This document shows, piece by piece, positions 4,381-40,362 of a DNA stretch of 40,470 nucleotides. A program made the translations under genes and the position numbers. The stretch lies in the sequence record SRR22947725_152, one strand, 5' to 3'. Numbering within the stretch: position 1 is the stretch's first letter; the number at the start of each line of letters is the position of its first letter. The notes beneath the pieces are model-generated. The model was not told where the DNA came from and made no database searches. It saw nothing but the letters and a program-made list of their open reading frames with translations.

Positions 4381-6639
4381 ATGAATGAACTCGACGATAT
4401 CCATGTAATTGGCGTGCGCCATTTATCGCCTGCAGCCGCTTTATGTGTTGTTAAAACGCTTGAGGAAGTGCAGCCTTCAGTTGTTTTAATCGAAGGCCCT
4501 TCAGATGCGACTCATCTCATAGAGAAAATTATGCATGAAGATGTTCAACTGCCAGTTTCCTTGTTAGCCTACACTCCCGGTTCAGAGGGGACTTTGGCTT
4601 ACCCTTTGGTTGATTATTCGCCAGAGTATCAGGCGATGAAGTGGGCTCATGCAAACAACTCTGCAGTGAAATTCATTGACTTACCTTCGCGGACATTTTT
4701 GGCTTTAAATGAAGAAGACTTTAAGGGTGGGGGAGTCAGCGGTAGGAGTCGAATCGATATTTATCAAGAGTTAGCCGACCGGGCCGGTGAGAGTTCATAC
4801 GATGCCTATTGGGAGAGAAACTTTGAGCATTTGAAGGATGCTTCCTATTTTAAAGAAATGGCTTTTGAGTTAGGACTGACACTGCGGCAACTAGAGCGTG
4901 AAGCAAGGGACTTTCACCACGCCGAAAACTTACTGCGCGAAGCCTATATGAGGCGTTGTATCGCCGAGGAAATTAAGGGAGGGGCCCTTCCTGAAAAAAT
5001 AGTTGTGATTGTAGGAGCTTATCACGCTCCAGTCCTTGGTAGTGATGAACATGTTATGACGGATAAGGAACTGAAAACCTTACCCGCTATTTCATGCCAC
5101 TTGACTCTTATGCCTTATTCTTATTATCGCTTGTCGCGGCAGGCGGGGTATGGCGCGGGAAATTGTGGTCCTTTATACTTTGGTAAAATATGGCACTCAT
5201 TTCGAGAGCAAGAAAGCTGTTATATAGAAAGTTACCTCTCTGTAGTGGCGGCTAAATTGCGGCAAAGTTCAGTTAAGGTATCAACTGCAGCAGTGATTGA
5301 GGCGGGGCAGTTATGTCGGGCTTTAGCCAAGATAAAAGATGGTGTTGTTGTCTTAGAAGACCTAAGGTCGGCCGTAAACTCTTTATTGTTCCAGGGGGTG
5401 TCCGAGGATCTGCAAAGAGAGGTTTTCACAAGTGCCGAAATAGGTACAGCGGTAGGTTTCATTCCGGAAGGCTTGGTGATGACATCGATTCAGGATGATT
5501 TTAATCAGCGCCTTAAGAAATTAAACTTAGAAAAATACAAAACGGATCAATTAGCAGAATTAAAGTTGGACCTGCGTGAAAATCGGCGTGTAAAGACTCA
5601 AGCCGCTGCTTTTAGAGACCTCAATCGTTCACAGTTTTTTCATCAGTTAAACTTTCTTAAAGTCCCTTTTGCTAAACAACGACAAGATGACAATGAAAGT
5701 AGTTGGCAGGAGAAATGGTTTGTGCGTTGGCAGCCTCAGAGTGAAATCGCTTTAGTGGATAATGTCCTTTGGGGAGAGACTTTAAAAGCGGCCGTCCATG
5801 CCAGGTTTCAACATAAACTTCAACAAGCAGAAAAATTGGTGCATGTTTGCCGTTTAACCCGTCAGGCCTTGCAGTGTGGCTACCAGCAATTACTTCACTT
5901 GGGGGTCAAACAACTCCAACAGCAATCAGTAGGCGGAGCCGAATTCAGCGATTTGTCTGAGGCGATTTCTGAAATTTCATTTCTCGTTGATTACGGTTCC
6001 TTAAGGACGATTGATTCGAAAGCCTTTAAGCCTTTGTTAGAACAGCTCTTTTTTGAAGCTTGTCTACTTCTTTATAATGCTGCGGACTGCAACTCTGAAA
6101 GGCAGGATATTATTGCTAGAGGTTTAAAGTCTATTAATAAGGTCGGCCGTCGCCAAAGTGCTTTTGTTGATGATGAGCGCTGGTTACAGTCTTTAGAGAA
6201 ACTCGCATTTTCGGATGAACGAAATCCTTATCTGAGTGGTTTAGCATTTGCTTTACTCATTGAACGCCAGTTTATCGAGGATGCTCAATTGTCTGTTGAA
6301 ATGAGTCGCCGACTTTCTCCGGGTATGGCGTCTGACATTGCTATTAGTTGGTTCGAAGGTCTTATTTCACATAATCCTTTAGAACTGTTACACCGGCGCA
6401 AACTATGGGAGTCTTTAGCAGATTATGTATCGACTTTCACCGATGAAGAATTTCAAAAGTCACTAGTTTTACTGCGGCGTTCTTTTAGCCAATTTGCCGA
6501 TGAGAACAAACGACAAATCGCTCAAAACCTCTGCGCTTTTTGGGGCTTGTCAAAAACTGACTCTGAAGAGCTCTTGGATATTCAGCTATCCGATGAAGAG
6601 AGCGCTTTGCTAGATGAGTTGGACGATATTGACTTTTAG
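4381..6639 (+). CDS. DUF5682 / YehM-like protein
   Basis: GVRHLSP, VLIEGP, YSPEYQA, REAYM, VGAYH, MPYSY.RLS..AGYGAG motifs; directly downstream of the YehL-like ATPase. Confidence 0.85.
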   Translation: MNELDDIHVIGVRHLSPAAALCVVKTLEEVQPSVVLIEGPSDATHLIEKIMHEDVQLPVSLLAYTPGSEGTLAYPLVDYSPEYQAMKWAHANNSAVKFIDLPSRTFLALNEEDFKGGGVSGRSRIDIYQELADRAGESSYDAYWERNFEHLKDASYFKEMAFELGLTLRQLEREARDFHHAENLLREAYMRRCIAEEIKGGALPEKIVVIVGAYHAPVLGSDEHVMTDKELKTLPAISCHLTLMPYSYYRLSRQAGYGAGNCGPLYFGKIWHSFREQESCYIESYLSVVAAKLRQSSVKVSTAAVIEAGQLCRALAKIKDGVVVLEDLRSAVNSLLFQGVSEDLQREVFTSAEIGTAVGFIPEGLVMTSIQDDFNQRLKKLNLEKYKTDQLAELKLDLRENRRVKTQAAAFRDLNRSQFFHQLNFLKVPFAKQRQDDNESSWQEKWFVRWQPQSEIALVDNVLWGETLKAAVHARFQHKLQQAEKLVHVCRLTRQALQCGYQQLLHLGVKQLQQQSVGGAEFSDLSEAISEISFLVDYGSLRTIDSKAFKPLLEQLFFEACLLLYNAADCNSERQDIIARGLKSINKVGRRQSAFVDDERWLQSLEKLAFSDERNPYLSGLAFALLIERQFIEDAQLSVEMSRRLSPGMASDIAISWFEGLISHNPLELLHRRKLWESLADYVSTFTDEEFQKSLVLLRRSFSQFADENKRQIAQNLCAFWGLSKTDSEELLDIQLSDEESALLDELDDIDF

Positions 6640-19726: not shown

Positions 19727-20905
19727 ATGAGTAAGAATTCCTGGAAAACTACAAGTTGGCGAATTGTCCTTCTTATAAGCTTTGTGCCTTTAGCTATATG
19801 TTTCATTTCACTCCCTTTCTGTCAGCGTCATGCCGATGTTTTTTATGGGGCCGACCTTCAAAATTATGAATCCATGGGCAAGGGCATGGATTATTGGATA
19901 GATAAAGGTATGGGCCGTCAATACTTTGCGACTGGCAGTGATCGTTTTAATGGAGAATGGCTCTTTGGGACATACCTCATGACAGCGATTGGTTATACAC
20001 AAATCGTTCTTCAATACCCCGAACTTCAAAGCATCTATATGCCCCAAATAGAAAAGTCGTTGTTAGAAATTCAGCAAGAAGCTATTTATAAATTTGATAG
20101 CGAAGCTTGGGGCGAAAGTCCATTCACACTTAAGCGCGGCGATCATGCGGCTTATTTGGGTTATTATAACTTAGCTTTGAGTCTCTACAGTCTCGTACCT
20201 GCTTCGGAAGGCAAAAATGAGAGCTTAATTGAGCTCAATCACAAAATCAGCGCCTATTTACAAAAGCGCTTAAAGTTATCACCACTGAAGCTTCTTCAAT
20301 CGTATCCGAAAGAGATTTACTCGGTAGATAATTGTGCGGTTATTGCTTCTATTGCGGTTTATCAGAAAGCACAAAATAAAGAGGGAAGCCTTTTTGTTAA
20401 AGAGTGGCTTCAGGTGTGTCGCGATTTATGCATGGATAAGGAGACCGGCACTTTAATTCAGGCACTTGATTGGCAGGACGCCTCTCTTTCAGAGTATCCA
20501 AGGGCTTCCGGAACCCTCTTGGGGGTTTATTTTTTGAGCTTTGCCGACTTTAATTTTGCCAAAGAACTTTATGAAAATGCCCAACAAGAATTCTTTTCTC
20601 CCATTCTTGGTTTTGGCGCCACTCGGGAGTACACCCATGAACAGCCTAAAGGTTTGGGAGATATCGATTCTGGGCCGCTTCTTTTCGGTTATGGTTTATC
20701 ACCGATGGGTTTTATGCTGGGTTGTGCGCGCATTTTTGAAGATGAACAGACATTTCGTGCTCTCTATGCGACATGTGTTCTTGGGGGGGCGCCGGTTGGC
20801 GGGGAAGGTCAGTTTAATTGGTCTACGGGAGGGCCAGTAGGAGATGGCCTGATGTTTGGGATGCTGACGAGTTTAAATAAAGGTGCCTGGGAGAGACTCA
20901 AATGA
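19727..20905 (+). CDS. Membrane-anchored linalool dehydratase/isomerase-like (alpha/alpha barrel) protein
   Basis: N-terminal TM; YLGYYNLAL, LQSYP..IYSVDN, PRASG, G.REY, GDIDSGP motifs recalled from this family. Confidence 0.6.
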   Translation: MSKNSWKTTSWRIVLLISFVPLAICFISLPFCQRHADVFYGADLQNYESMGKGMDYWIDKGMGRQYFATGSDRFNGEWLFGTYLMTAIGYTQIVLQYPELQSIYMPQIEKSLLEIQQEAIYKFDSEAWGESPFTLKRGDHAAYLGYYNLALSLYSLVPASEGKNESLIELNHKISAYLQKRLKLSPLKLLQSYPKEIYSVDNCAVIASIAVYQKAQNKEGSLFVKEWLQVCRDLCMDKETGTLIQALDWQDASLSEYPRASGTLLGVYFLSFADFNFAKELYENAQQEFFSPILGFGATREYTHEQPKGLGDIDSGPLLFGYGLSPMGFMLGCARIFEDEQTFRALYATCVLGGAPVGGEGQFNWSTGGPVGDGLMFGMLTSLNKGAWERLK

Positions 20906-24033: not shown

Positions 24034-25431
24034 TTAAATAGGACAGCTTTCTTTTTTCCACCCAAGTTTGGCCTCGATAGACTGGATGATCATGCCTGCG
24101 ATGTTTTTACCTGTTGCGGATTCGATCCCTTCCAGGCCGGGAGAAGAGTTGACTTCCAAGAGCAATGGCCCTTTTTCAGAACGGATGATATCGACACCAG
24201 CCACTTTAAGTCCGAGAACTTTTGCTGCCTTTACGGCCAGTTTTCTTTCTTCCGGGGTAATTTTAACTATGGATGCAGTGCCGCCTTTGTGCATATTAGC
24301 GCGGAATTCACCTGGGGCAGCAGTCCTTTCAATAGAGGCAACCACTTTACCGTTGATCACAAAGCAGCGCAGATCTTTACCTCTTGCCTCTTTGATAAAT
24401 TCTTGAACTAGCAGATTGGCTTTAAGGGATTTAAATGCGTTAATTACACTTTCTGCGGCTTTCTTGGTTTCGGCAAGAACGACACCTTGTCCTTGAGTCC
24501 CCTCGAGAAGTTTGACGATGAGTGGAGCGCCTCCAACCATTTCAATAAGATCGTTGGTATCCATCGGCGAGTTGGCAAAGCCGGTAGTTGGAATGCTTAT
24601 ACCGCTCTTTAACATGAGTTGTAAAGAAAAGAGTTTATCGCGGGATTGAGTGATCGCTTCAGATGAATTGGTGGTGTAGATACCCATGCTTTCAAATTGT
24701 CTTGCGAGAGCACATCCGTAGAAAGTCATACTAGGACGAATACGGGTGATGACGGCATCCAGATTATTGAGTATTTTACCGCCGCGGTAGTGGATTTCCG
24801 GGGTCTCGTCATCAACCTTCATATAACAGTGCTTCATATTGAAGAATTCCATGCGGTGTCCCATTTCCTCGCCAGTTTCCATGATGCGCTGGTTACTGTA
24901 AAGCTCTGGGTTGCTGGCCAACAGGCCAATTCGCAGGCCATTATTTTTTGATGATTTTGGTTTCCCATAAAATTCGTCTAGCTGATTTTTTTCGACTTCA
25001 CCAAAACAAAAGCTTAGGGAAGGGTCTACGAGTAATTTGCCGTTCATGGCTTCACGACCAAGCAGCATGCGGTAGCCCATGCTGTCGCGATTGGTCAGGG
25101 TTAGTTCGACGTCCCAAGCTTCAGAGGCAAATTTCAAAGTGGATTTAATGGTATAACGCATTTCAGAGCTACCACTTGAGTTTTTTACTTTGCGTTTGCC
25201 GATGACTTGATGTTCACAGCGAATAACTGTTTTGCGGTTATTTAACAGAGGGTGAACTTCAAAACTTACCCAGAGTTCGCCATCTCGCCTGAAAGTTTTT
25301 ATGTTAACTGCGTGAATTGAAGAGGTTTTGGCTCCCGAGTCGATTCTCGCTTTGATCGCGGGAATACCCATGGCGGGAAAAGACAGCCATTCTTCACTGC
25401 CTACGATATGTTTGTCATCAAATTTTTTCAT
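24034..25431 (-). CDS. rimK: Fusion of retropepsin-like protease (RimB-like) and RimK ATP-grasp glutamate ligase
   Basis: N-terminal [11 protein letters not shown]...[17 protein letters not shown]-terminal [48 protein letters not shown]. Confidence 0.92.
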
Positions 25432-28136: not shown

Positions 28137-29519
28137 TTACCTTATTTCGATCACTGGTTGAGAGAAAAGAGTGTTGGTATTATTGACTGCAAAGCCGATA
28201 TAGTTAAGGCTCTTAATGTTTTGAGTTAAAGTTTGTTTTATGCTAAAATTGTTTATGGTAAACTCCGCGGTTCTTGTATCCATATTTACTGTTAATTGAC
28301 AATTTAATTCCCCCTTTAAATTAAAGCCTGATTTAACGGCATTTATACGTTTTTGGACATTTTCAAAAATGGTAATATGTCTAGAAGAAATCCAAGATCC
28401 GGCCAGTAAAGAAGGTTCGCCTTTTTGTTCTTGACTCAAGATTAAAAAGCCATTTTTTGTTGGGTTTTGTTGATTAAAAGGCTTCATCTTCCAGTGGATT
28501 GAGATTTCACCTGAGGTCATGCTTTTGTCTAGCTTTTTCAGGCTATAGACAAGTCCTTTATTTTGCATATTAGCTACTTTGTAGCCGTAGGCATTGTTTT
28601 CAATTACGGCAGTACCGGCATAACGATTCACAGTACTTGTAGATAGGCTGGCTTTTGCAACAGGAGTGTTATTATTTTTAATGATAGATGAACTGTAAGA
28701 TTTTATCGGGTAAAGTGAGACAGGCTTTTTATTCGGCATCTGAAAATATAGCCTTTTTTGAGTCAGTTTGAAGATGATGGTCATCTTGCGTCTCGAGTCG
28801 TAAATGTGAATTTCACCTTTACTTCTTTGCTTTTCTGCGAAGGTGTATTTCAACTTGCCTTGTTTATCGATTTCCCGCCATTTCTTATCAGCTCCTCTTT
28901 CAAAAGTAATGCCTCTGCCGGTATCGATGAATATGGCGTTGAGTCCACTTATAGCCGGTGGCGCTTTGATTGGCGGAATAGTTCTTTCTTTGACTGGCGG
29001 CTTGCTTTGTACTTGAGCATGATTTTGGCTTAGGCTTTTTACATAACTTCTAATGGCCAGGGCATCGGTTATTTTGTTTTCTTTGGTTAAAGAGATGATT
29101 TTTTTATTGAGTGCTTTGATCAAACTTTGCTGAAGTTCATTTACACTTTTTTGGTAAGATGCCATTAATTTTTTGTTGTTGCTTTTTAACTTCTGGAGCA
29201 CAACTTGAGCGTCACTATATGCGGGGAGGCTTTTATTGAGCAATGTGAGTTCTTGGAGCTTAATTTCATCGAGAAGTTTTCTGATGGCGAGGTAGGCTTT
29301 GAGCTGACCTTGTTTTTGATAAGCATTTTGAACTTTTTGCAGATTTTGGATAGCGTTTTCACACAGTTTAAATTGTAATTGCTCTAAAGTGATTTGCTTG
29401 TTTTTAATTTGCTCTTGGTATTTCTCTTTATAGAGATTTAAGACTTGGCTTTCGGCGCCTGTGACTAGGTAAGTCGAGAAAACCAGTAATAGACTAAGAA
29501 TTATTTTTATGTTCATCAT
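28137..29519 (-). CDS. Secreted multidomain hypothetical protein
   Basis: Signal peptide; helical region with a repeated motif (QKQGQLKAYLAIR / TKENKITDALAIR), Pro-rich linker, two beta-rich domains. Confidence 0.75.
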   Translation of the reverse strand: MMNIKIILSLLLVFSTYLVTGAESQVLNLYKEKYQEQIKNKQITLEQLQFKLCENAIQNLQKVQNAYQKQGQLKAYLAIRKLLDEIKLQELTLLNKSLPAYSDAQVVLQKLKSNNKKLMASYQKSVNELQQSLIKALNKKIISLTKENKITDALAIRSYVKSLSQNHAQVQSKPPVKERTIPPIKAPPAISGLNAIFIDTGRGITFERGADKKWREIDKQGKLKYTFAEKQRSKGEIHIYDSRRKMTIIFKLTQKRLYFQMPNKKPVSLYPIKSYSSSIIKNNNTPVAKASLSTSTVNRYAGTAVIENNAYGYKVANMQNKGLVYSLKKLDKSMTSGEISIHWKMKPFNQQNPTKNGFLILSQEQKGEPSLLAGSWISSRHITIFENVQKRINAVKSGFNLKGELNCQLTVNMDTRTAEFTINNFSIKQTLTQNIKSLNYIGFAVNNTNTLFSQPVIEIR

Positions 29520-30318: not shown

Positions 30319-30469
30319 AGATTTTAGAATAATTTTGTTTTTTCTATCAAATAAACTGCCAGCTTGAGGAGAAAAGGTCTTACATTCCTTTTTAATTAGT
30401 ATAATTGCTAATGTGTATTTTTTGTGTCAGCTTAGTAGTGGATATTATGAATGGATAAGGGAGCAGTAT

Positions 30470-31093
30470 ATGGGTTTTGTACGGTCAATTTTTGGACCTT
30501 CAAAAGATGAAATTTGGGGACAGATTGCTAGGGACATCGGTGGGGACTATATAGATGCGGGATTTTTTGGGACGGACACCTTAAAGTATCAACACGGAGA
30601 ATGGGAGCTTCATCTCGATACTTTTACGCGCTCGAGTGGGACAGGCAGCTCTCGTACATCGACGACTTACACGAGAATGAGGGTGCCTTTCAAGAATAAG
30701 GATGGCCTTTATTTTAAAATCTCGCCCGAGAGCATTTTCAGTCCAGTGGGTAAATTTTTCGGCATGCAGGATATCCAGATAGGCGATGCTTTTTTTGATG
30801 ACTCTTTCGTGATTAAAAGTAATAACGAAGAGAGAGTTAAAGAGTTATTAGCAGATAGCCGTGTGCGAGAACTTATTCATAGTCAACCGCGAATCTACCT
30901 GGAAGTAAAGGATGACGAAGGTTGGTTTTCTCAGTCTTTTCCCAAAGGGGTTGATGAGCTCTACTTTGAGACTCACGGCGTCATTAAAGATGCCAAGACA
31001 TTAAAATTGCTCTTTGAGCTTTTTGCCGCTGTACTGGATCGTTTAGTTGACATAGACTCTGCCTATGAAAGCGCTCCGGGAATTAGTTTTTAA
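30470..31093 (+). CDS. DUF3137-like protein
   Basis: Start moved to ATG 30470 (SD AAGGGAG); MGFVRSIFGPSKDEIW, YTRMR.PF.N.D, FGMQDI.IGD.FFD..F.IKSNNE. Confidence 0.7.
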   Translation: MGFVRSIFGPSKDEIWGQIARDIGGDYIDAGFFGTDTLKYQHGEWELHLDTFTRSSGTGSSRTSTTYTRMRVPFKNKDGLYFKISPESIFSPVGKFFGMQDIQIGDAFFDDSFVIKSNNEERVKELLADSRVRELIHSQPRIYLEVKDDEGWFSQSFPKGVDELYFETHGVIKDAKTLKLLFELFAAVLDRLVDIDSAYESAPGISF

Positions 31094-31144: not shown

Positions 31145-31390
31145 ATGGAGTTGGCACAACTAAGGGAGTTTTTAGGTTGGTGTACACTGATCAACTCTTG
31201 TCTTTTGATTCTTTCTGGAGCGGCTGTTTTATTGTGTCGGGAAAGAATAATTTCGATTCACGGTCGCCTCTTTTCTATGGCGAAAGAAGACTTGAGCAAA
31301 GCTTACTTTTATTATTTGGCGATTTATAAAATACTGATTATCTGCTTTAATCTGACTCCCTATATAGCCTTGCACTTTATGCTCAATTAA
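31145..31390 (+). CDS. Small membrane protein, DUF6868-like
   Basis: SD AAGGAG; REFLGWCTLIN..LL, H..LF, YKILII.FNL.PYIAL. Confidence 0.75.
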   Translation: MELAQLREFLGWCTLINSCLLILSGAAVLLCRERIISIHGRLFSMAKEDLSKAYFYYLAIYKILIICFNLTPYIALHFMLN

Positions 31391-31887
31391 GCTTTGAGTT
31401 TTTTCTTCAGCAGGCGGATTTTCTTAGAGAAGCGAAATTTACTTATGACTTTTTCTTGATCAGCTTCAGTAAAAATTCCAGAGTAGATGAAGTAGAGAAT
31501 GGGGAAAATCCCAAATGAAAAGAGAAAGCAAATGAAGGAATTCTTTTCGACCCAGGTTTCAAAGCCATGGCTTCCATGATGAATGAATAATTGGAGTGTC
31601 CCACTTAAGAAAAAATAACTAAATAATAGCCAGAAACTTTTGGTTCCTGACCTTATCATCGATACGGCCATTATGTAGCTGGCAGAACTTAGTGCTGAGC
31701 CCCACATAACCGATTTTAAAGGGAGTTGTGGGTTCATGAAAAAATGGGTCATGAAGCCGGCAATTAAAAGCGGCAAGCCATAAACGATGCATATTCTTTG
31801 ACACCGGAGGTAAGATTCATCTTCAAACATTTTAGGTTTTGGAATCTTTGGTATTTTGATCTTTGCTTTGGATATTCTAAGTTTCAT
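31387..31887 (-). CDS. Hypothetical membrane protein (about 4 TM)
   Basis: Four hydrophobic segments, basic termini, G-rich SD upstream. Confidence 0.7.
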   Translation of the reverse strand: MKLRISKAKIKIPKIPKPKMFEDESYLRCQRICIVYGLPLLIAGFMTHFFMNPQLPLKSVMWGSALSSASYIMAVSMIRSGTKSFWLLFSYFFLSGTLQLFIHHGSHGFETWVEKNSFICFLFSFGIFPILYFIYSGIFTEADQEKVISKFRFSKKIRLLKKKLKA

Positions 31888-32052: not shown

Positions 32053-32640
32053 ATGAGTGATCTTGACAATTTTAATCAATCAAAAGCTGGTGTTTGGGAG
32101 CAAATATCTAAGGATATAGATGGCGACTTCATTGATTGTGACTTTTGGGGCGATGATGTTCTCAAGTACAAATACAATGATTGGGAAATTGTTTTGGATA
32201 CCTATTCGGTAACTAAGTCTAAAACGAAAATCACTTATACAAGAATGAGGGCGCCCTTTGTTAATAACGATAACTTTGATTTCAAAATTTACCGAGAAGG
32301 CTTATTTAGTTCAGTAGGTAAAATCTTTGGCATGCAGGACATTGAAATTGGCGATGATTTCTTTGATAAGGAATTCATTATTAAATCCAATAATGAAGAC
32401 ATGGTCAAAGAGTTATTTAATGACGATTCTTTAAAAGAATTGATTCACCAACAGCCAGAGATCATGTTTGAAATCAAGGAAGATGACGGTTGGTTCAAAC
32501 AGTCGCACCCAGAAGGCGTTGATGAACTCTACTTTGAAGCCGCTGGTATTCTTAAAGAGACAAAGTTGTTGCGCTCTTTATTTGAGATGTTTGCTTTAAC
32601 CCTTGACCGTCTCGTTCATCTAAAGATTACAGATAAATAG
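32053..32640 (+). CDS. DUF3137-like protein, paralog of 30470-31093
   Basis: SD AAGGAG; shares YTRMR, FGMQDI.IGD.FFD, IKSNNE, DDGWF...P.GVDELYFE, LDRLV with the first copy. Confidence 0.75.
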   Translation: MSDLDNFNQSKAGVWEQISKDIDGDFIDCDFWGDDVLKYKYNDWEIVLDTYSVTKSKTKITYTRMRAPFVNNDNFDFKIYREGLFSSVGKIFGMQDIEIGDDFFDKEFIIKSNNEDMVKELFNDDSLKELIHQQPEIMFEIKEDDGWFKQSHPEGVDELYFEAAGILKETKLLRSLFEMFALTLDRLVHLKITDK

Positions 32641-32745
32641 GGCTTCCTGAATGGGATATTAATTTTTTATTCAAAATAATCAAGAATTGGCCATAATGAA
32701 GACCTTGTTCTTCATATATGCTTCATGAATAACATAAGGTATTTC

Positions 32746-34323
32746 ATGAAAACAATTCTATTTTTATTATTGCTGTCTTTATCGGTCTTTGCCGAACAAC
32801 AGAGACCGAATATTCTCTTCATCTTTTCGGATGATCATTCTCTACAGACTCTTGGGGCCCATAATGGTCGCATGAAAGATTTTTTGAAAGAGCACAAAGT
32901 TACCCCAAACTTAGATAAGCTTGCAGCACAAGGCATGTACTTTGAAAATAGCTTTGTTTGCAACTCCATTTGTGGTCCCAGTCGAGCGGCAATCTTGACT
33001 GGCAAACACAGTTGGCAAAATGGCTTTAAAAGCAACGGTCAAAAGTTTAATGGCAAGCAGTGGAATATGGCCAAAGCTTTTCAGAAATCGGGTTACGAAA
33101 CCGTGGTTTATGGTAAGTGGCACTTGAGCACGACCCCAACTGGGTTTGATAGCTCATGGGTCCTTCCTGGACAAGGTAAGTACTACAATCCCGATTTTTC
33201 TGTTGATGGTAAAAAGAAAGTTCAAAAACAGGGCTATTGCACAGATGTAGTGGTGGATATGACTCTTGACTGGCTAAAAAATAAGCGCGATCCAAAGAAG
33301 CCGTTTTTTCTTTGTAGTTGGCAAAAAGCTCCACATAGAACATGGATGCCGGCTCCTCGTCACTATACCTATCTCGATGATGTTGAAATCCCTGAGCCGG
33401 TTAATATGTTCGATAACTATGGCGGTGGTCGTAATTCCTCTTTGAAAACCCAGCATATGGATCTTGAAACTTACCTAAGCTTGCAGACAGATGTTAAAGT
33501 GACCCCACCATTTGCTACTAGTACGGTTGAAGAAATTAGGAATTCAGTTGAGAAGCAGCCTTCTTGTGATAAGTCGACCATTGGCGAGTTTGAAAGAATG
33601 ACTATGGCACAAAGAAAGGCCTGGGATGCTTACTACGTACCGCGCAATAAAAAGTTTCGCTCTATGAATTTAAAAGGTAAAGGCCTCGTTCGTTGGAAGT
33701 ACCAGCAATACTTGAAAGACTACTTGCGCTGCATTAAAGCTCTTGATGAAAATGTCGGCCGCCTGATGGCTTACCTAAAGGAAACCGGTCTGGATAAAAA
33801 TACGATCGTCATTTACAGCTCTGATCAAGGGTTTTATAATGGTGAACATGGTTGGTATGACAAGCGCTGGATGTATGAAGAGTCCTTAAGAAATCCATTT
33901 ATTATTAAGTACCCCGGTGTCACCAAGCCAGGTTCACGTGTTGAGCAAATGATTCAAAATATCGACTATGCTCCAACTCTTCTTGATATTGCGGGTATCG
34001 ATATTCCTAAGGATGTGCAAGGGGCATCTTTCAGGCCGATTCTTGAAGGCAAGAAACCTGAAAACTGGCGTAAAGATTTACTTTACACCTATTATGGTCG
34101 TGGGGCTCATAATGTTGCATCACACTACGGAATACGCACAGAGCGTTATAAATTAATCCATTTTCCTAAGACAGATGAATGGGAACTTTTTGACCTTAAG
34201 AAAGATAAGAATGAAATGACGAATCTTTATCAGAATCCCGAACAAAAAGGTAAAGTACAGGAGCTCAAAAAATCTCTTGAAGGTCTCCTTTCAAAGTACG
34301 ATGTCGAGGTTGATAAAAAGTAA
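32746..34323 (+). CDS. Secreted S1 sulfatase (N-acetylglucosamine-6-sulfatase-like)
   Basis: Start ATG 32746; RPNILFIFSDDH, NSICGPSRAAILTG, GKWHL, KAPHR, SDQGF..GEHG..DKRWMYEES. Confidence 0.93.
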   Translation: MKTILFLLLLSLSVFAEQQRPNILFIFSDDHSLQTLGAHNGRMKDFLKEHKVTPNLDKLAAQGMYFENSFVCNSICGPSRAAILTGKHSWQNGFKSNGQKFNGKQWNMAKAFQKSGYETVVYGKWHLSTTPTGFDSSWVLPGQGKYYNPDFSVDGKKKVQKQGYCTDVVVDMTLDWLKNKRDPKKPFFLCSWQKAPHRTWMPAPRHYTYLDDVEIPEPVNMFDNYGGGRNSSLKTQHMDLETYLSLQTDVKVTPPFATSTVEEIRNSVEKQPSCDKSTIGEFERMTMAQRKAWDAYYVPRNKKFRSMNLKGKGLVRWKYQQYLKDYLRCIKALDENVGRLMAYLKETGLDKNTIVIYSSDQGFYNGEHGWYDKRWMYEESLRNPFIIKYPGVTKPGSRVEQMIQNIDYAPTLLDIAGIDIPKDVQGASFRPILEGKKPENWRKDLLYTYYGRGAHNVASHYGIRTERYKLIHFPKTDEWELFDLKKDKNEMTNLYQNPEQKGKVQELKKSLEGLLSKYDVEVDKK

Positions 34324-34327
34324 GTTC

Positions 34328-36337
34328 CTAGTAGAAAATGACTTCGTACTTTTCGTGTAATTTACGGAGGTTCTCCTCATTGAAGGTATGCTGTGGGATG
34401 TGTACTTTCTTGAGGGATTTAAAGTTTTTTAATTCACTAAGATCGAGCCAACGATTATTGAGGGCAATTTCTTGAAGCGGGGTGTTTTCTAGTTTTTGAA
34501 TATGCCTAATGTTGGTTTTATACATTAAAAGTTTTTCTAAGGGGCAATTAGCTAGAGGCTCGATATCTAGTACATCCGTTTGAGTAATATTCAGGATTTT
34601 GAGTTTTGAGTTCATTAGGGGCCGTAGATCGAAGATATTTGTGTTTGATATATCCAAGTCAATAATGGGGAGATTATTGAGGGGGACTATGTTATACATG
34701 CCGTTATTATTGGCTAATGATAGAGAGTAACCGCCTTCGATTTCTTTAAGGTCAAAAGTATACTCATAATTAGTGATGCTTCTAAAGTAACGCTTGGCAA
34801 ACTCCAGTCTATCTTCGAGCTCATATAAAAGAGTGCAATGGTGCAGGAAGTGCATGCGTAAGTGGGGGGCATCGGGAATATCGCGCATTTCTTTAATTTT
34901 AGAAATGAGTTCCTGTTGTCGAATAAGGCTGCCTTTCTCCTGTAGTTTCAGGCAAAAATGGCAGAGCTCAACGAGCAATGTATACTTGTCATTATCGCGC
35001 CCTTGCGCCCAGTCTATGGCTTCTTGGAACTGATGGCGACCGACTAGTAAATTCATCATAAATTTATGTACATTGTCATTACTCGGGTCTAGCTGTATGG
35101 CCTTTTCAGTCAACTTAAAGGTTTTTTGATAATTTTTTCGAGCATATTCACGGCGAGCGTATTTGAGAAAATTAGGGGCGGCCATTTGGCGCAGAGCCAT
35201 ACTGTCTTCCTGAGCTCGTTCCGCTTCATCTCTCGCCATTTCGGCAGCACTCTGGGCATCGATTGCAGTGAGCTTTTCTCGATTAAGGTTATTGATGAAA
35301 GTGGTCGTTAACATTATCAAGCAAAGAATAAAAGCACTGATTGTCCCTGCTAAGACTTTATAGCGTTTGATGAGTAATATGGAAAGAGTTAAAAATCCAG
35401 CGTCTTCTGCTTGAGTGGCAAACCCACTTTGATAAGCACGGATATCTGCAGCAAGTTGGCGACAACTTTGGTAGCGCTCCTGGGGGTCGAGAGCTATAGC
35501 TTTCTTAAGAACGGCTTTGAGTCCGACGGGTAAATTTTCAGGTTCTTTTAACTCTCCAGCACAGGTATTCTCTTTTAGGTCTTTATCTGTATGGCCACCG
35601 ACGGGCAATTGATGGAGGAGCATGGCGTACAATAAGCAGCCAAGGCTATAAATATCTGTTAATGGACTGATGCCCTCTCCGACGATTTGTTCAGGTGACA
35701 TGAACCCCGGAGTACCGACAATTTTATTTGTTTTCGTCATTTGATCATCGATATACGCAGCTAGCCCCCAATCACAAACGAGAACTTCACCGAATTCACT
35801 TATCTGAATGTTTGCCGGTTTTATGTCGAGGTGCATGATATTCTTTGAGTGGGCAAAAGAAATAGCATCGCAAATTTTTAGGAAAATCTCCAACATTGAC
35901 TGCTGATTATATTTTTCTCTATAGTTTTCTTTTTTGATATTTTTAATGACTTCAGCGAGATTTTCTCCATGTAAGATTTTCATGGTGAAAAAAGGGCGGC
36001 CCTCATCGACAGAGAGTTCGTGAACAGGGACGATATTGGGGTGTTCCAGGCTTGCAGAGATGCGTGCTTCCTGAATAAAGGCATCGATTCCTTCAGCATC
36101 GAGGTCATCTTTTGGCACGGCCATCGCCACATCGCGTTCGGTATAGAGGTCTCGGCAAAAAAGGATTTGCTTCATGCCGCCTTCATTGAGAAATTTTGTC
36201 GGGCTGTATTTTTGTTCTAATTGGCAGATTTGCATGTAGCGATCAGAATCTTTTAAGCGCGCTTTTTCATCCTCCATAGCAGCATCAAAGTGCTGTAGGA
36301 GTCCTTCATTCATGCAGAATTTATTGTTATCTGACAT
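34328..36337 (-). CDS. Hanks-type Ser/Thr protein kinase with TM helix, coiled coil, TPR-like and LRR regions
   Basis: EGGMK loop, FIQEARI, HPNIV, HLDIKPANI, DWG, GTPGFMSPE, DIYSLG; TM VLAGTISAFILCLIML; LDISNTNIFDLRPL-type repeats. Confidence 0.92.
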   Translation of the reverse strand: MSDNNKFCMNEGLLQHFDAAMEDEKARLKDSDRYMQICQLEQKYSPTKFLNEGGMKQILFCRDLYTERDVAMAVPKDDLDAEGIDAFIQEARISASLEHPNIVPVHELSVDEGRPFFTMKILHGENLAEVIKNIKKENYREKYNQQSMLEIFLKICDAISFAHSKNIMHLDIKPANIQISEFGEVLVCDWGLAAYIDDQMTKTNKIVGTPGFMSPEQIVGEGISPLTDIYSLGCLLYAMLLHQLPVGGHTDKDLKENTCAGELKEPENLPVGLKAVLKKAIALDPQERYQSCRQLAADIRAYQSGFATQAEDAGFLTLSILLIKRYKVLAGTISAFILCLIMLTTTFINNLNREKLTAIDAQSAAEMARDEAERAQEDSMALRQMAAPNFLKYARREYARKNYQKTFKLTEKAIQLDPSNDNVHKFMMNLLVGRHQFQEAIDWAQGRDNDKYTLLVELCHFCLKLQEKGSLIRQQELISKIKEMRDIPDAPHLRMHFLHHCTLLYELEDRLEFAKRYFRSITNYEYTFDLKEIEGGYSLSLANNNGMYNIVPLNNLPIIDLDISNTNIFDLRPLMNSKLKILNITQTDVLDIEPLANCPLEKLLMYKTNIRHIQKLENTPLQEIALNNRWLDLSELKNFKSLKKVHIPQHTFNEENLRKLHEKYEVIFY

Positions 36338-36435
36338 CGACGACCTGTATATTAACTTTGAATTATTTTACACATCTTGTGTCAACATTTGCCAGTTATT
36401 TACCATTATTGCTGACAAACAAGACAGGAATTATT

Positions 36436-37860
36436 ATGAAAATTGCCATCATTAGCCTTTTATTGACACTGGTCTCCAGTTTATATGCCGAAAAACCCAA
36501 CATTGTATTTATTTTAGTTGATGACCTTGGTCGCCAGGATTTGGGCTGTTATGGCTCGACCTTTTACGAGACCCCTCATATAGACTCTCTTGCCGGCGCA
36601 GGCTTGAAGTTTGAAAATGCCTATGTGGCTCATCCGCGTTGTGTTCCTTCGCGCTTCGCTATCTTCAGTGGTCAGTACCCTGCTCGTTATGGCGTTCCAG
36701 GTAAGAAAAAACAATTTAAACATACTTTACCGTTAAAGCTTAAGACATTTGGCGAGCACCTTAAAGAAGCTGGCTACGCTACTGCCTATATTGGTAAGTG
36801 GCATCTTGGAGGACACGGAGGCGAACCCAAATACCAAGGTTGGGACACAAGCATCATGGCTGGTCATGCCGGTGGTCCTCCTAGCTATTTTTATCCATTC
36901 CACAAAACTCAAAAGGGCAAATCCAAAGAAGACTTTCCTGTCGTTGAAGGAAAAGAAGGTGAACACCTTACCAATAGACTCACAGATGAAGCTCTCACTT
37001 TTATTGAAGCGAATAAAGAAAAACCGTTTCACCTAACCTTGGCTTACTATGCCGTTCACACTCCCATTGAAGCGCCCAAACATCTTATTAAAAAATATGA
37101 AGAAAAAATTAAAAAATTAGGCATTCAAAACGGTGGTAAAACATCTACTGCTGATGTCATCAAAAACTCTACCGGTGTTTTTAAAACAGTACAAAACAAT
37201 CCGGCTTATGCGGGAATGATCGAAAAATTAGACAATAATGTCGGCCGACTGATGAATCGACTCGAAAAACTGGGCATAGCAGATAACACAGTAATCGTCC
37301 TTACTTCTGACCATGGTGGTTTATCTTCTCGAGGCCATGAATCCAAAAGAGAACTTGCAACTTCCAACCTCCCTTACCGTCATGGTAAAGGTTGGATTTA
37401 TGAAGGGGGCAACCGCGTCCCTCTACTGGTTAAATGGCCAAGTAAAGTGAAACCTGCAACGACTAAACAAAGAATTACCGGCACCGATCACTTCCCTACT
37501 TTCCTTGAAATTGCCGGTATCAAACAAGCTCCTGAAGATCACAAAGATGGCCAAAGTTACTTCGCTGCCTTGAATGGCAATACTTACGATAGAGGGGCAA
37601 TATTTTGGCATTCAGCTTTAGGCCGTCCGGCGCAAACAGGCGATACCAATATGTCAGCGATTATTGAAGGCGATTTTAAGTTTATTCAGTGCCATAATCT
37701 AGACAAAATTGAGCTTTATAACATTGATAAAGATAGCGCAGAAAGTAAAGATTTGTCCGTGACTATGCCAGAGAAAGTTCAGGAAATGGCTAAGAAGCTC
37801 GATGCTTGGAAAAAGAGTGTTGGTGCCGATATGAAGCCGACAAAAAACAAGAAAAAATAG
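36436..37860 (+). CDS. Secreted S1 sulfatase
   Basis: Start ATG 36436 (SD CAGGA); KPNIVFILVDDLG, CVPSR, GKWHLG, YAVHTP, TSDHGG, GKGWIYEGG.RVP. Confidence 0.93.
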   Translation: MKIAIISLLLTLVSSLYAEKPNIVFILVDDLGRQDLGCYGSTFYETPHIDSLAGAGLKFENAYVAHPRCVPSRFAIFSGQYPARYGVPGKKKQFKHTLPLKLKTFGEHLKEAGYATAYIGKWHLGGHGGEPKYQGWDTSIMAGHAGGPPSYFYPFHKTQKGKSKEDFPVVEGKEGEHLTNRLTDEALTFIEANKEKPFHLTLAYYAVHTPIEAPKHLIKKYEEKIKKLGIQNGGKTSTADVIKNSTGVFKTVQNNPAYAGMIEKLDNNVGRLMNRLEKLGIADNTVIVLTSDHGGLSSRGHESKRELATSNLPYRHGKGWIYEGGNRVPLLVKWPSKVKPATTKQRITGTDHFPTFLEIAGIKQAPEDHKDGQSYFAALNGNTYDRGAIFWHSALGRPAQTGDTNMSAIIEGDFKFIQCHNLDKIELYNIDKDSAESKDLSVTMPEKVQEMAKKLDAWKKSVGADMKPTKNKKK

Positions 37861-37949: not shown

Positions 37950-39305
37950 ATGAAAATTTTATTATTAGTTATGTGCCTTTCTTGGGCTGCGATGGCAGCC
38001 CCAAAGCCCAATGTCATTTTAATCTTAGCAGATGACCTAGGAGCCAGTGGCTTAAATTGTTATGGCGGCCAATTCCTGGAAACACCGCATCTAGATCAAC
38101 TTTGCAAAAAGGGGATGAAATTTACCAACGGTCTGGCGGCTTACCCTACCTGTAAGCCTTCAAGAGCGGCTCTTTTAACAGGGCAGTATGGCTCAAGAAC
38201 GAGCGTATATCGAGTTGTCGATCGACATACAGGGCAAGAAAATAAGATAAAATACTTGGTCCCACCGAATAAAGTCGTAGCTCATGAGAAAACGGTGATT
38301 TCTGAGGTTTTTAAAAAGGCAGGTTATACGACGGCGATGTTTGGCAAGTGGCATGTCAGTAATCACACCGACGGTCATCCTTTGAAACATGGCTTTGATG
38401 AAGCGATCGCTAGTGCCGGTGTTCATTATAATTTTAAGGCTTATCCTGCAGTGGATTATCCTAAAGAACAGACAAGCGCTGAGTATTTTACCGATTGTGC
38501 CAATCGCTTTATGGCGAAAGCAGTTCAAAAAGACACGCCCTTTTTTCTGTATATGCCCTATTACTTAGTGCACCGTCCCATGGAAAGTAAAAAGGAATAC
38601 ATAGACCACTTTAAAAAGAAATTTGGCGCGACATATGAGGATGAAGAACTACCCATTCTAGCGGCGATGACCAAGCTCTTAGATGACTGTGTAGGTTCTC
38701 TCATGAGTAAAGTGAAGGAACTTGATATTGAGCAGGAAACCTTAATTATTTTCACCTCGGATAATGGTGCTTTTAAGGAGATCTATACGGCTGGCTTGAG
38801 AGGCTCGAAAGGGGATACTTATGAAGGGGGCATGCGCGTTCCTTATATTTTCTCTTGGCCGGGTAAAATCCCGTCGGCGAGTGTGAGTGATGAGCGCATT
38901 ATTGGGGTTGATCTATTTCCGACTCTTGCTGCCATCGCCAAGCAAACAGTAGATCAAAAAAGCGATGGCGATAATCTTTTGCCATTATTGACGGCCGAAA
39001 AGAAATCTTTAGGTAAGCGCAGCCTCCTCTGTTATTTTCCTAAGTATGCTCGTTTTAGTAAGAAAACTGGCAAGTGGGCTCAAAGTTGGCGAAATATTCT
39101 TTATGAAGGAGATTATAAGTTGATTGAGTACCCCGAGTACGGAACTTATGAAATGTTCAACTTGAGGCAAGACGAGCAAGAAGTTGATAACCTACTTAAG
39201 TCTCAGCCAGAAAAAGCCCAATATTTAAAAAAGAAGTTAGCCCAAAAACTCGTCGAGATAGAAGCTCCTAAAATGCAGCTGAATCCCGACTTTGAACTCA
39301 AATAA
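37950..39305 (+). CDS. Secreted S1 sulfatase
   Basis: KPNVILILADDLG, CKPSRAALLTG, GKWH, TSDNG, GSKG..YEGGMRVP. Confidence 0.93.
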   Translation: MKILLLVMCLSWAAMAAPKPNVILILADDLGASGLNCYGGQFLETPHLDQLCKKGMKFTNGLAAYPTCKPSRAALLTGQYGSRTSVYRVVDRHTGQENKIKYLVPPNKVVAHEKTVISEVFKKAGYTTAMFGKWHVSNHTDGHPLKHGFDEAIASAGVHYNFKAYPAVDYPKEQTSAEYFTDCANRFMAKAVQKDTPFFLYMPYYLVHRPMESKKEYIDHFKKKFGATYEDEELPILAAMTKLLDDCVGSLMSKVKELDIEQETLIIFTSDNGAFKEIYTAGLRGSKGDTYEGGMRVPYIFSWPGKIPSASVSDERIIGVDLFPTLAAIAKQTVDQKSDGDNLLPLLTAEKKSLGKRSLLCYFPKYARFSKKTGKWAQSWRNILYEGDYKLIEYPEYGTYEMFNLRQDEQEVDNLLKSQPEKAQYLKKKLAQKLVEIEAPKMQLNPDFELK

Positions 39306-39312
39306 GGAAACT

Positions 39313-40362
39313 ATGAAACTCATTCTCATTTTATTATTCAGTTGCTGCTTAAGCCTCACGGCAGAGCAAAAAATTTCTGCCGACCATAAGAGTTTAAGCC
39401 TTGTTGGCGCTCATTATAGTTTCATGAAAGATGACTTATTGATTCCACAAAGACACTCTTCAGCTATTCTGAAAATGAGTAAACCTGAGTTGTCTTTCGA
39501 TCCCGTTAAAGCCCAAACTACGTCTGGTGCAGTCCTAAAATTTAAGACAAATAGCCAGAACATATCTTTATCATTTAAAGCTCTTAAAGGAGAAAATCGC
39601 GGCTCAGAGTTTGCTGTTTTTGAAAATGGCCAACTTAAATTCGAGAAGAAATTTCAAAAGTCCCACGAAGCTCTGCAGCTAGATTATAAACGTCAAAGTT
39701 CTGAACTTGCAGAGATAGAAGTGGTTTTGCCTTCATGGTCAAAAGTGGCTTTTGCGGGTATGACTATCGATAAAGGGGCAAGCTTAGAAAAATGTCAGTC
39801 GAAGAAAGTCTACGTTGCCTTTGGCGATTCCATATCGCACGGAACAGGGCAGGGCTCAGCTACTTACAAAACTTGGCCTTATTTACTTACCCAAAAAATG
39901 GATTTTGACTTATATAACCTAGCCGTCGGTGGCGGCAAGGTATCATTACCCGCAGCTGGCCTTTTAAAGGACTTTCCACAAGTCGATGTCGTGACGTTAT
40001 TGATTGGTTATAACGATATGAATTCGGGGATTTCCCCACAAGGCTTTGCCGCAAAATACAAAAAATTTCTGACAATTGTTTCTGAAGCTCATCCACAGGC
40101 CAAAGTTTACTGCATCTCGCCGCTCTATACCAAAACTCAGAAATCTAAGTCGCAGAAGTCCGAGCATACTATCGATGAATTTCGCCAAGCTGTGATTAAG
40201 ACAGTTACGGCTTTTCAGAAATCTTCGGCCAATATCCAGCTGATCGTTGGTCACGAGATCAGTTCAGAAAAAAATCTTCGGCCTGATTCAAAAGATCCAG
40301 TACATCTAGGTATTTCAGGAGCTCAAATGCTGGCCGATGAATTGGTTAAAATCATAAAATAA
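39313..40362 (+). CDS. Secreted SGNH/GDSL hydrolase (possible carbohydrate acetyl esterase)
   Basis: Start ATG 39313 (SD AAGGA); FGDSISHG, NLAVGG, IGYND, DPVH. Confidence 0.88.
   Translation: MKLILILLFSCCLSLTAEQKISADHKSLSLVGAHYSFMKDDLLIPQRHSSAILKMSKPELSFDPVKAQTTSGAVLKFKTNSQNISLSFKALKGENRGSEFAVFENGQLKFEKKFQKSHEALQLDYKRQSSELAEIEVVLPSWSKVAFAGMTIDKGASLEKCQSKKVYVAFGDSISHGTGQGSATYKTWPYLLTQKMDFDLYNLAVGGGKVSLPAAGLLKDFPQVDVVTLLIGYNDMNSGISPQGFAAKYKKFLTIVSEAHPQAKVYCISPLYTKTQKSKSQKSEHTIDEFRQAVIKTVTAFQKSSANIQLIVGHEISSEKNLRPDSKDPVHLGISGAQMLADELVKIIK

Follow-up and report, generated by a model that had tools for sequence, protein, structure and literature searches.

A WNK-like lysine arrangement in a family of PknB-like receptor kinases from PVC bacteria

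Introduction

WNK kinases are eukaryotic protein kinases with a DLG motif that bind chloride at the point where the activation loop begins. They differ from other Hanks-type kinases in the lysine that contacts ATP: a lysine in strand beta-2, at position 55 of PKA, is essential for catalysis and makes the contact that K72 makes in PKA (PMC1821047, PMC12599244, PMC13686953), and in WNK1 the beta-2 and beta-3 positions are held by K233 and Cys250, respectively (PMC1821047). Kannan et al. 2007 describe WNK as the only functional eukaryotic protein kinase family lacking K72 (PMC1821047). Here we analyse a DNA stretch of 40,470 nucleotides from sequence record SRR22947725_152, referred to below as the window, whose sole kinase gene (34328..36337, minus strand) encodes a bacterial kinase with a lysine (K56) in the glycine loop and an alanine (A73) where the beta-3 lysine would stand. 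In our assessment this is probably a competent PknB-like receptor Ser/Thr kinase whose ATP-anchoring lysine has moved from beta-3 to the glycine loop in the manner of WNK.

The kinase of the window shares with WNK the lysine at the third glycine of the glycine loop, a small residue at PKA position 72, the alphaC glutamate, the catalytic Asp and Asn, and the metal-binding Asp. We equate K56 with WNK K233 by motif register and by the description of WNK in PMC1821047, and not by a sequence alignment with WNK. WNK keeps the HRD arginine (R348; PMC1821047), whereas the family of the window's kinase has HLD, and this kinase is set further apart by its DWG motif, its predicted single-pass receptor architecture with an ectodomain resembling tetratricopeptide (TPR) and leucine-rich (LRR) repeats, and a descent that does not run through the WNK branch. 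PknB and other bacterial Hanks receptors have in common with it the GGM core of the loop, the order of kinase domain, transmembrane helix and extracytoplasmic sensor, and threonines in the activation loop; PknB, however, has the canonical beta-3 lysine, HRD, DFG and PASTA domains, in place of which the window's kinase has K56/A73, HLD, DWG and a TPR/LRR-like sensor.

Under the customary sequence rule, a kinase domain with no beta-3 lysine is classed as a pseudokinase (10.1101/2025.01.12.632604). The pseudokinase families of the 2025 atlas of bacterial Ser/Thr kinases (ActPs1-3, DLHK, GLW, CP1 and DYD) likewise lack the VAIK lysine, but as described there they are missing the Asp of HRD, of DFG or of both, or have an arginine in beta-3, while the kinase of the window has both Asp residues. 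These families are actinobacterial, proteobacterial, cyanobacterial or firmicute (10.1101/2025.01.12.632604). The name of the GLW family could be taken to refer to the HLD leucine and the DWG tryptophan, but this candidate was set aside because in the atlas GLW replaces HRD and both Asp residues are absent. None of the seven pseudokinase families of the atlas and a 2025 review is described with a glycine-loop lysine in the main texts. The terms 'Lentisphaer-', 'Planctomycet-', 'Verrucomicrobi-' and 'PVC' (Planctomycetes-Verrucomicrobia-Chlamydiae) are absent from the main text of the atlas preprint, and the first three also from the review. Among the papers covered by our literature search, we found no published description of a bacterial WNK-like kinase with a glycine-loop lysine.

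Results and Discussion

A receptor-type kinase with K56 and A73

The gene at 34328..36337 comprises 669 codons plus stop in the list of open reading frames (ORFs), and all coordinates within it are on the minus strand. Its translation begins with a cytoplasmic Hanks-type protein kinase domain (Pfam Pkinase, PF00069; residues 49-291, 35465..36193), which matches the profile with an E-value of 9.7e-40 and 137 bits against a cut-off of 31.7. A putative single transmembrane helix, judged by eye from a hydrophobic stretch (residues ~328-348, VLAGTISAFILCLIMLTTTFI; 35294..35356), separates this domain from a predicted extracytoplasmic region (34331..35293) that appears TPR-like and LRR-like. The match to TPR_19 is weak (residues 399-443, 35009..35143; E 0.0046) and falls under the curated cut-off, and the LRR-like repeats towards the C-terminus were recognized by eye; homologs are annotated with PF14559 and PF12799 (LRR_4) in precomputed domain assignments. 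An AlphaFold2 (AF2) model of residues 1-320 has a mean predicted local distance difference test score of 91.4. Foldseek searches with this model gave PknB as the best matches, with probability 1.00 and template modelling scores up to 0.88 by target, and in a phmmer search the top PDB sequence match was Mycobacterium tuberculosis PknB (E 5.9e-38). PknB, PknA and StkP lead, and no WNK entry is present among the top 60 PDB sequence matches or the Foldseek matches listed. We take the gene product, from a marine Lentisphaerae bacterium, to be a PknB-like Hanks kinase with a predicted membrane receptor layout.

Within the kinase domain, the glycine loop reads N51-E-G-G-M-K56 (36170..36187; K56 codon AAG at 36170-36172) and strand beta-3 reads V70-A-M-A73 in place of VAxK (36119..36130; A73 codon GCC at 36119-36121). 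In the phmmer alignment 'EGGMKQI' pairs with 'FGGMSEV' of PknB and 'VAMAV' with 'VAVKV', aligning K56 to S23 and A73 to K40; K56 therefore takes the third glycine position of GxGxxG, and A73 that of the beta-3 lysine. In the AF2 model K56 opens strand beta-2 and A73 lies inside the strand formed by residues 68-75, while K76, in the beta3-alphaC loop (36110..36112 by codon arithmetic), falls past the end of that strand. The initial annotation, made from the sequence, had reported both substitutions together with intact FIQE, HLDIKPAN, DWG and SPE motifs, and the translation and the PknB alignment bear out this description in full. The alphaC glutamate is E90 (36068..36070), within a helix spanning residues 81-96 of the model; the catalytic loop H169-L-D-I-K-P-A-N176 (35810..35833) is of the non-RD type, with Leu for the Arg of HRD; the metal-binding D189-W-G (35765..35773) follows a family-typical C188; and S214-P-E (35690..35698) is an APE-type P+1 motif. 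Measured against the criteria for Hanks kinases, the VAIK lysine is thus absent and the alphaC Glu, D171, N176, D189 and the SPE motif at 214-216 are present. Threonines of the activation loop also align with Thr positions of PknB, which we take to be T171 and T173 in the numbering of that protein.

Two mutually exclusive lysines

Family-wide comparison shows that the two lysine positions exclude one another. A word-indexed search gave 120 relatives, those with names being from Lentisphaerae, Lentisphaerales or Lentisphaera. Among the resulting 121 proteins, query included, 120 are of the swap type, meaning a lysine in the glycine loop and none in beta-3 (117 K/A and 3 K/G), and P0042 alone is canonical (G/K). 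An exhaustive HMMER search returned 33,746 proteins at E<=1e-30, from which the best 150 representatives were taken on. Alignment of 234 proteins to the query yielded 386 domain stretches, 286 of them spanning both sites. A glycine-loop lysine is found in 174 of the 286, none of which has a beta-3 lysine (Ala 169, Gly 4, Thr 1); a beta-3 lysine is found in 100, none with a lysine in the glycine loop (Gly 73, Ser 12, Ala 12, other 3). No domain has both lysines and 12 have neither. The same holds in a larger pooled set that was not de-duplicated, where the glycine-loop lysine occurs in 0/210 canonical and 238/238 swap domains. The co-occurrence of GGMK with loss of the beta-3 lysine, put forward as a check in the initial annotation, is therefore without exception in any set that we aligned (e.g. 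174/174 versus 0/100), and a distribution this exclusive shows that the swap is not a product of chance.

A different lysine could in principle be the catalytic one, with K56 incidental. The candidates are K76, only three residues past A73, and position 72 (the x of VAxA), where many paralogs have Lys (e.g. 'VAKA'). Neither holds up on conservation, and we ruled out both: the K76 position is Lys in just 81 of 174 swap domains (H, R, L, S, I etc. in the others), and position 72, a Met in the kinase of the window, varies among M, K, L, I, R, T, Y and F across the family, with a side chain that by strand alternation should point off the ATP site. K56, on the other hand, is Lys in 174/174 and is the only invariant lysine of the N-lobe in the family alignment. 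The comparison of K56 with K76 that the initial annotation had called for thus comes out for K56, since a residue as variable as K76 is not the catalytic one, and we give the idea of another catalytic lysine almost no weight.

Apart from the lysine, the catalytic set is as conserved in the swap clade as in canonical relatives. Swap domains retain the alphaC Glu (173/174), the His and Asp of HxD (174/174 each), the catalytic-loop Lys (173/174) and Asn (174/174), and the Asp (173/174), Trp (174/174) and Gly (174/174) of DWG. At the position of the HRD arginine the two groups differ, with Leu in 164/174 swap domains versus Arg in 81/100 canonical ones. Comparison of 238 swap with 126 canonical DWG domains (pooled, not de-duplicated) gives only five family-specific columns, namely K56, A73, L170, C188 and T258, whereas DWG itself is common to the swap kinases and their canonical sister group. 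We also surveyed codons in 65 swap genes, 53 from Lentisphaera marina and 12 from other loci. The K56 codon is AAA in 45 of them and AAG in 20, and the A73 codon is GCT in 21, GCC in 18, GCG in 16 and GCA in 9, plus one GTT (Val). Because both Lys codons and all four Ala codons are in use, the residues have been kept through saturated synonymous change, which points to selection on the residues K56 and A73 themselves.

These patterns bear directly on a second explanation, that the swap clade consists of pseudokinases which bind a nucleotide or a partner and signal by conformation or as scaffolds, K56 serving binding or fold only. The sequence rule cited above would class them so, the HRD arginine is lost in nearly all swap domains, and ortholog P0005 is without the DFG Asp. 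Set against this, the bacterial pseudokinase families known from the atlas mostly lack one or both of the Asp residues of HRD and DFG, whereas both are kept here almost without fail, together with the Lys and Asn of the catalytic loop and the Glu of alphaC; the compensating lysine is invariant despite the turnover of synonymous codons; and in WNK the exact same arrangement is active (PMC1821047). We consider a pseudokinase clade unlikely, though it is the foremost competitor to a catalytically competent family.

A third explanation accepts catalysis and supposes another reaction or donor, such as a different nucleotide or a non-protein substrate, with the lysine shift reflecting an altered substrate geometry. 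Precedents exist in POMK/SGK196 and CAK-chloro, where positive charge is likewise shifted from beta-3 to the glycine loop (a Lys in POMK, R55 in CAK-chloro) and chemistry or substrates are unusual (PMC12599244, PMC1821047). POMK, however, lacks the alphaC Glu and has DLD (PMC12599244), and CAK-chloro, a member of the choline/aminoglycoside kinase group, has Arg55, Met72, Gln186 and a Phe at the Glu position (PMC1821047), whereas the family described here keeps the full catalytic set of a protein kinase. All 134 swap domains aligned in the C-lobe also have the Pro and Glu of the protein-kinase APE/SPE motif, the Asp of subdomain IX and the Arg of subdomain XI. The closest folds to the kinase of the window by Foldseek are protein kinases, and its activation-loop threonines align with those of PknB. 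An altered reaction therefore seems improbable to us, though less so than a different catalytic lysine.

A single origin independent of WNK

For phylogeny, a FastTree analysis was run on 170 kinase domains (66 swap, 102 canonical, 2 other) from the ORFs of loci L001-L197 and the query, restricted to rows of 230-420 residues that span positions 56, 73 and 216, with the trait columns removed. All 66 swap rows fall inside one clade of 67 rows with a Shimodaira-Hasegawa-like support of 95, and the sister of this clade is a group of 86 canonical DWG kinases. An approximately unbiased (AU) test was carried out on a subset of 60 rows (28 swap and 32 canonical, 10 of them forced and the others random), the free tree being the product of a quick IQ-TREE search. 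The tree holding the swap rows together beats this free quick tree by 23.49 log-likelihood units (p-AU 0.884). The swap arose once, inside the canonical bacterial DWG kinases. The remaining row of the clade, an L. marina kinase (L137; G001:C1:422372-423951) with the canonical GGMG, VAYK, HRD and DWG motifs, takes a weakly supported (73) basal position near a long branch and may resemble the ancestral state. This kinase adjoins a weak sigma-like gene (Sigma70_r2, E 1.2e-4).

Since the nearest sequences and folds are those of PknB and the clade is nested among bacterial DWG kinases, the likeness to WNK is convergent. The initial annotation had made the same proposal, and here too its reading stands.

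Abundance in PVC genomes and linkage to ECF sigma genes

Our survey took in 6 genomes and ~300 loci. The genome of L. marina (G001, 5.3 Mb) yielded 97 ORF pieces from its Pkinase matches, comprising 53 swap kinases, 26 canonical kinases and 18 that were uncovered or other, none with both lysines. By glycine-loop residue, beta-3 residue and HxD motif, the 53 swap kinases divide into 48 K/A/HLD, 3 K/A/HRD, 1 K/A/HMD and 1 K/V/HLD. In the other five genomes the swap type accounts for 21 of 24 best matches, with 6 swap kinases in a Pontiellaceae genome (G002), 3 in Verrucomicrobiota JB023 (G003), 1 each in metagenome-assembled genomes (MAGs) of Chthoniobacter (G004) and Planctomycetota (G005), and 10 in a Verrucomicrobiota MAG (G006). 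Swap kinases are also present in MAGs labelled Pirellulaceae and Fimbriimonadia; the taxon labels of all these MAGs may be unreliable. Fifty-three copies with intact motifs in a single genome are hard to explain as dead enzymes. The paralog load of L. marina is in general extreme, with 98 Pkinase, 82 Sigma70_r2 and at least 150 sulfatase matches (150 of 321 first-look candidates scored).

Many of the L. marina paralogs are found next to genes for sigma factors of the extracytoplasmic function (ECF) type. An ECF sigma gene lies 215-629 bp upstream of 31 of the 53 swap kinases, and within 3 kb of 44/53 swap versus 3/26 canonical kinases. Among the 79 sigma ORFs recovered (L222-L299; kinases L103-L197), 56 have an N-terminal motif of the T-R-x-T-L-L type, and half of these (28/56) are followed by a swap kinase on the same strand within 1 kb, whereas the 23 ORFs lacking the motif have no kinase of any type after them. 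We speculate that the threonines of this motif could be phospho-acceptors.

Control of a sigma factor by phosphorylation has precedents in PknS/EcfK of Xanthomonas citri (PMC13147305) and PknT/EcfP of Vibrio parahaemolyticus (ECF43; PMC8999054), and the Planctomycete groups ECF59, ECF61, ECF62 and ECF217 are kinase-linked by prediction only (PMC8999054). The sigma-kinase microsynteny that defines these systems is matched by the L. marina paralogs. This adjacency makes the swap family the kinase partner of a sigma class in PVC bacteria, which fits the predicted Planctomycete groups. There are differences on both sides of the pair. PknS has all canonical motifs, including GxGGMG (PMC13147305), where our family has K56/A73. 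ECF43 factors have Thr in place of acidic region-2.2 residues (PMC13147305, PMC8999054); a dependence of the ECF43 kind was considered for the L. marina sigma factors and rejected, as the linked factors keep an acidic region 2.2 (consensus D-x-E-D-L-x-Q) and are set apart from the ECF43 partners by this and by the N-terminal T-R-x-T-L-L motif.

Proposed mechanism

Sequence, phylogeny and genomic context support the overall interpretation of the initial annotation, namely an active kinase that converged on the WNK arrangement; activity itself we infer from the pattern of residues. I58 corresponds to the Val that contacts adenine; K56, two positions earlier, should therefore face the ATP pocket beside A73, where the small beta-3 residue would leave enough space for the lysine to extend to the phosphates and to E90. 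The role of phosphate anchor and partner of the alphaC Glu would accordingly fall to K56 on the neighbouring strand beta-2 and no longer to a lysine in beta-3. We propose that this shift took place once, in the ancestor of a clade that now extends across Lentisphaerae, Kiritimatiellota-type and other PVC genomes, and that it was accompanied by a change from HRD to HLD and by a small residue, Cys, before DWG. Most paralogs, encoded behind an ECF sigma gene, probably switch that sigma factor by phosphorylation, and for the copy in the window the likeliest role of the TPR/LRR region is to detect a signal in the periplasm.

Several observations weigh against a competent, sigma-coupled kinase. A single ancestral event means that the perfect co-occurrence of the two substitutions does not amount to independent replication. 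The kinase of the window departs from the active-kinase consensus in three places, with the HRD arginine lost, Asn at the first glycine and Lys at the third. P0005, encoded in a Lentisphaerales MAG (L300) and one of the four closest orthologs, has C-V-W-G and has lost the DFG Asp, being the sole exception at the DWG Asp among the 174 domains; it keeps K56 and A73 and has further changes just ahead of C-V-W-G, and may be a degenerating copy or a faulty MAG sequence. With its acidic region 2.2 kept, the sigma class is not obviously phospho-dependent in the way of ECF43. Finally, Pfam and a hidden Markov model built from 78 L. marina sigma sequences (E<=10) detected no sigma-like ORF in the window, so that the hallmark of an ECF-sigma-coupled kinase, an adjacent sigma gene and no anti-sigma, is missing from this copy.

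If the relocation holds, the swap clade would be a natural replicate of the WNK design, present in about 50 copies per genome with the other catalytic residues kept. It would show which accompanying changes such a move needs, in this case the replacement of HRD by HLD and a Cys ahead of DWG, and would urge caution in calling such proteins pseudokinases by the VAIK rule. Bacteria would in addition become a tractable system in which to study the reason for the lysine's move. The findings further point to a layer of kinases and ECF sigma factors that may control the degradation of sulfated glycans in marine PVC bacteria. A bolder extension, which we offer by analogy with chloride in WNK and regard as a long shot, is that the relocated lysine frees the corner between beta-3 and DFG for a regulatory ligand; the clade would then be one of ion- or osmolyte-gated receptor kinases, combining an anion or osmotic signal from inside the cell with a glycan cue from the periplasm and, in marine bacteria, switching ECF sigma factors and sulfatase loci by the dozen.

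Genes surrounding the kinase

Pfam assignments place the kinase gene among sulfatases. Divergent from it on the plus strand are a sulfatase (36358..37860), a second sulfatase that is intact in the window (37950..39305) and a GDSL esterase (39292..40362), while a third sulfatase (32725..34323, plus strand; Pfam Sulfatase and SGSH_C) is convergent and ends 5 bases before the kinase stop. The divergent order of kinase, sulfatase, sulfatase and GDSL esterase is conserved in L300 around the gene for P0005 (L300:7995-10058), with identities to the window of 85% for the sulfatase, 69% for the GDSL esterase and 56% for the kinase; the third-sulfatase side is not conserved there. This conserved divergent arrangement suggests that the kinase regulates the sulfatase-sulfatase-esterase operon, and the copy in the window would do so through a putative phospho-target.

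In L300 the second sulfatase (L300:5033-6384) is broken into two overlapping ORFs (5668..6384 and 5033..5785), a pattern suggestive of a frameshift or a misassembly. In the divergent region of the window (36338..36440), only 20 bases separate the kinase start from the TTG listed as start codon of the first sulfatase (36358), and a signal-peptide-like 'MKIAIISLLL' begins 26 codons further on. Given this downstream start, the real divergent intergenic region is probably ~100 bp.

Elsewhere in the window, five ORFs of 166-460 residues (28137..29519 (-), 30413..31093 (+), 31387..31887 (-), 32053..32640 (+) and 19727..20905 (+)) have no Pfam family at E<=0.01, save for a sub-threshold match to a WipA-like phosphatase in 28137..29519 (E 0.0078). 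A further ORF, at 24034..25431 (-), joins a putative ATP-dependent zinc protease (PF05618), a RimK pre-ATP-grasp domain and an ATP-grasp domain in one reading frame.

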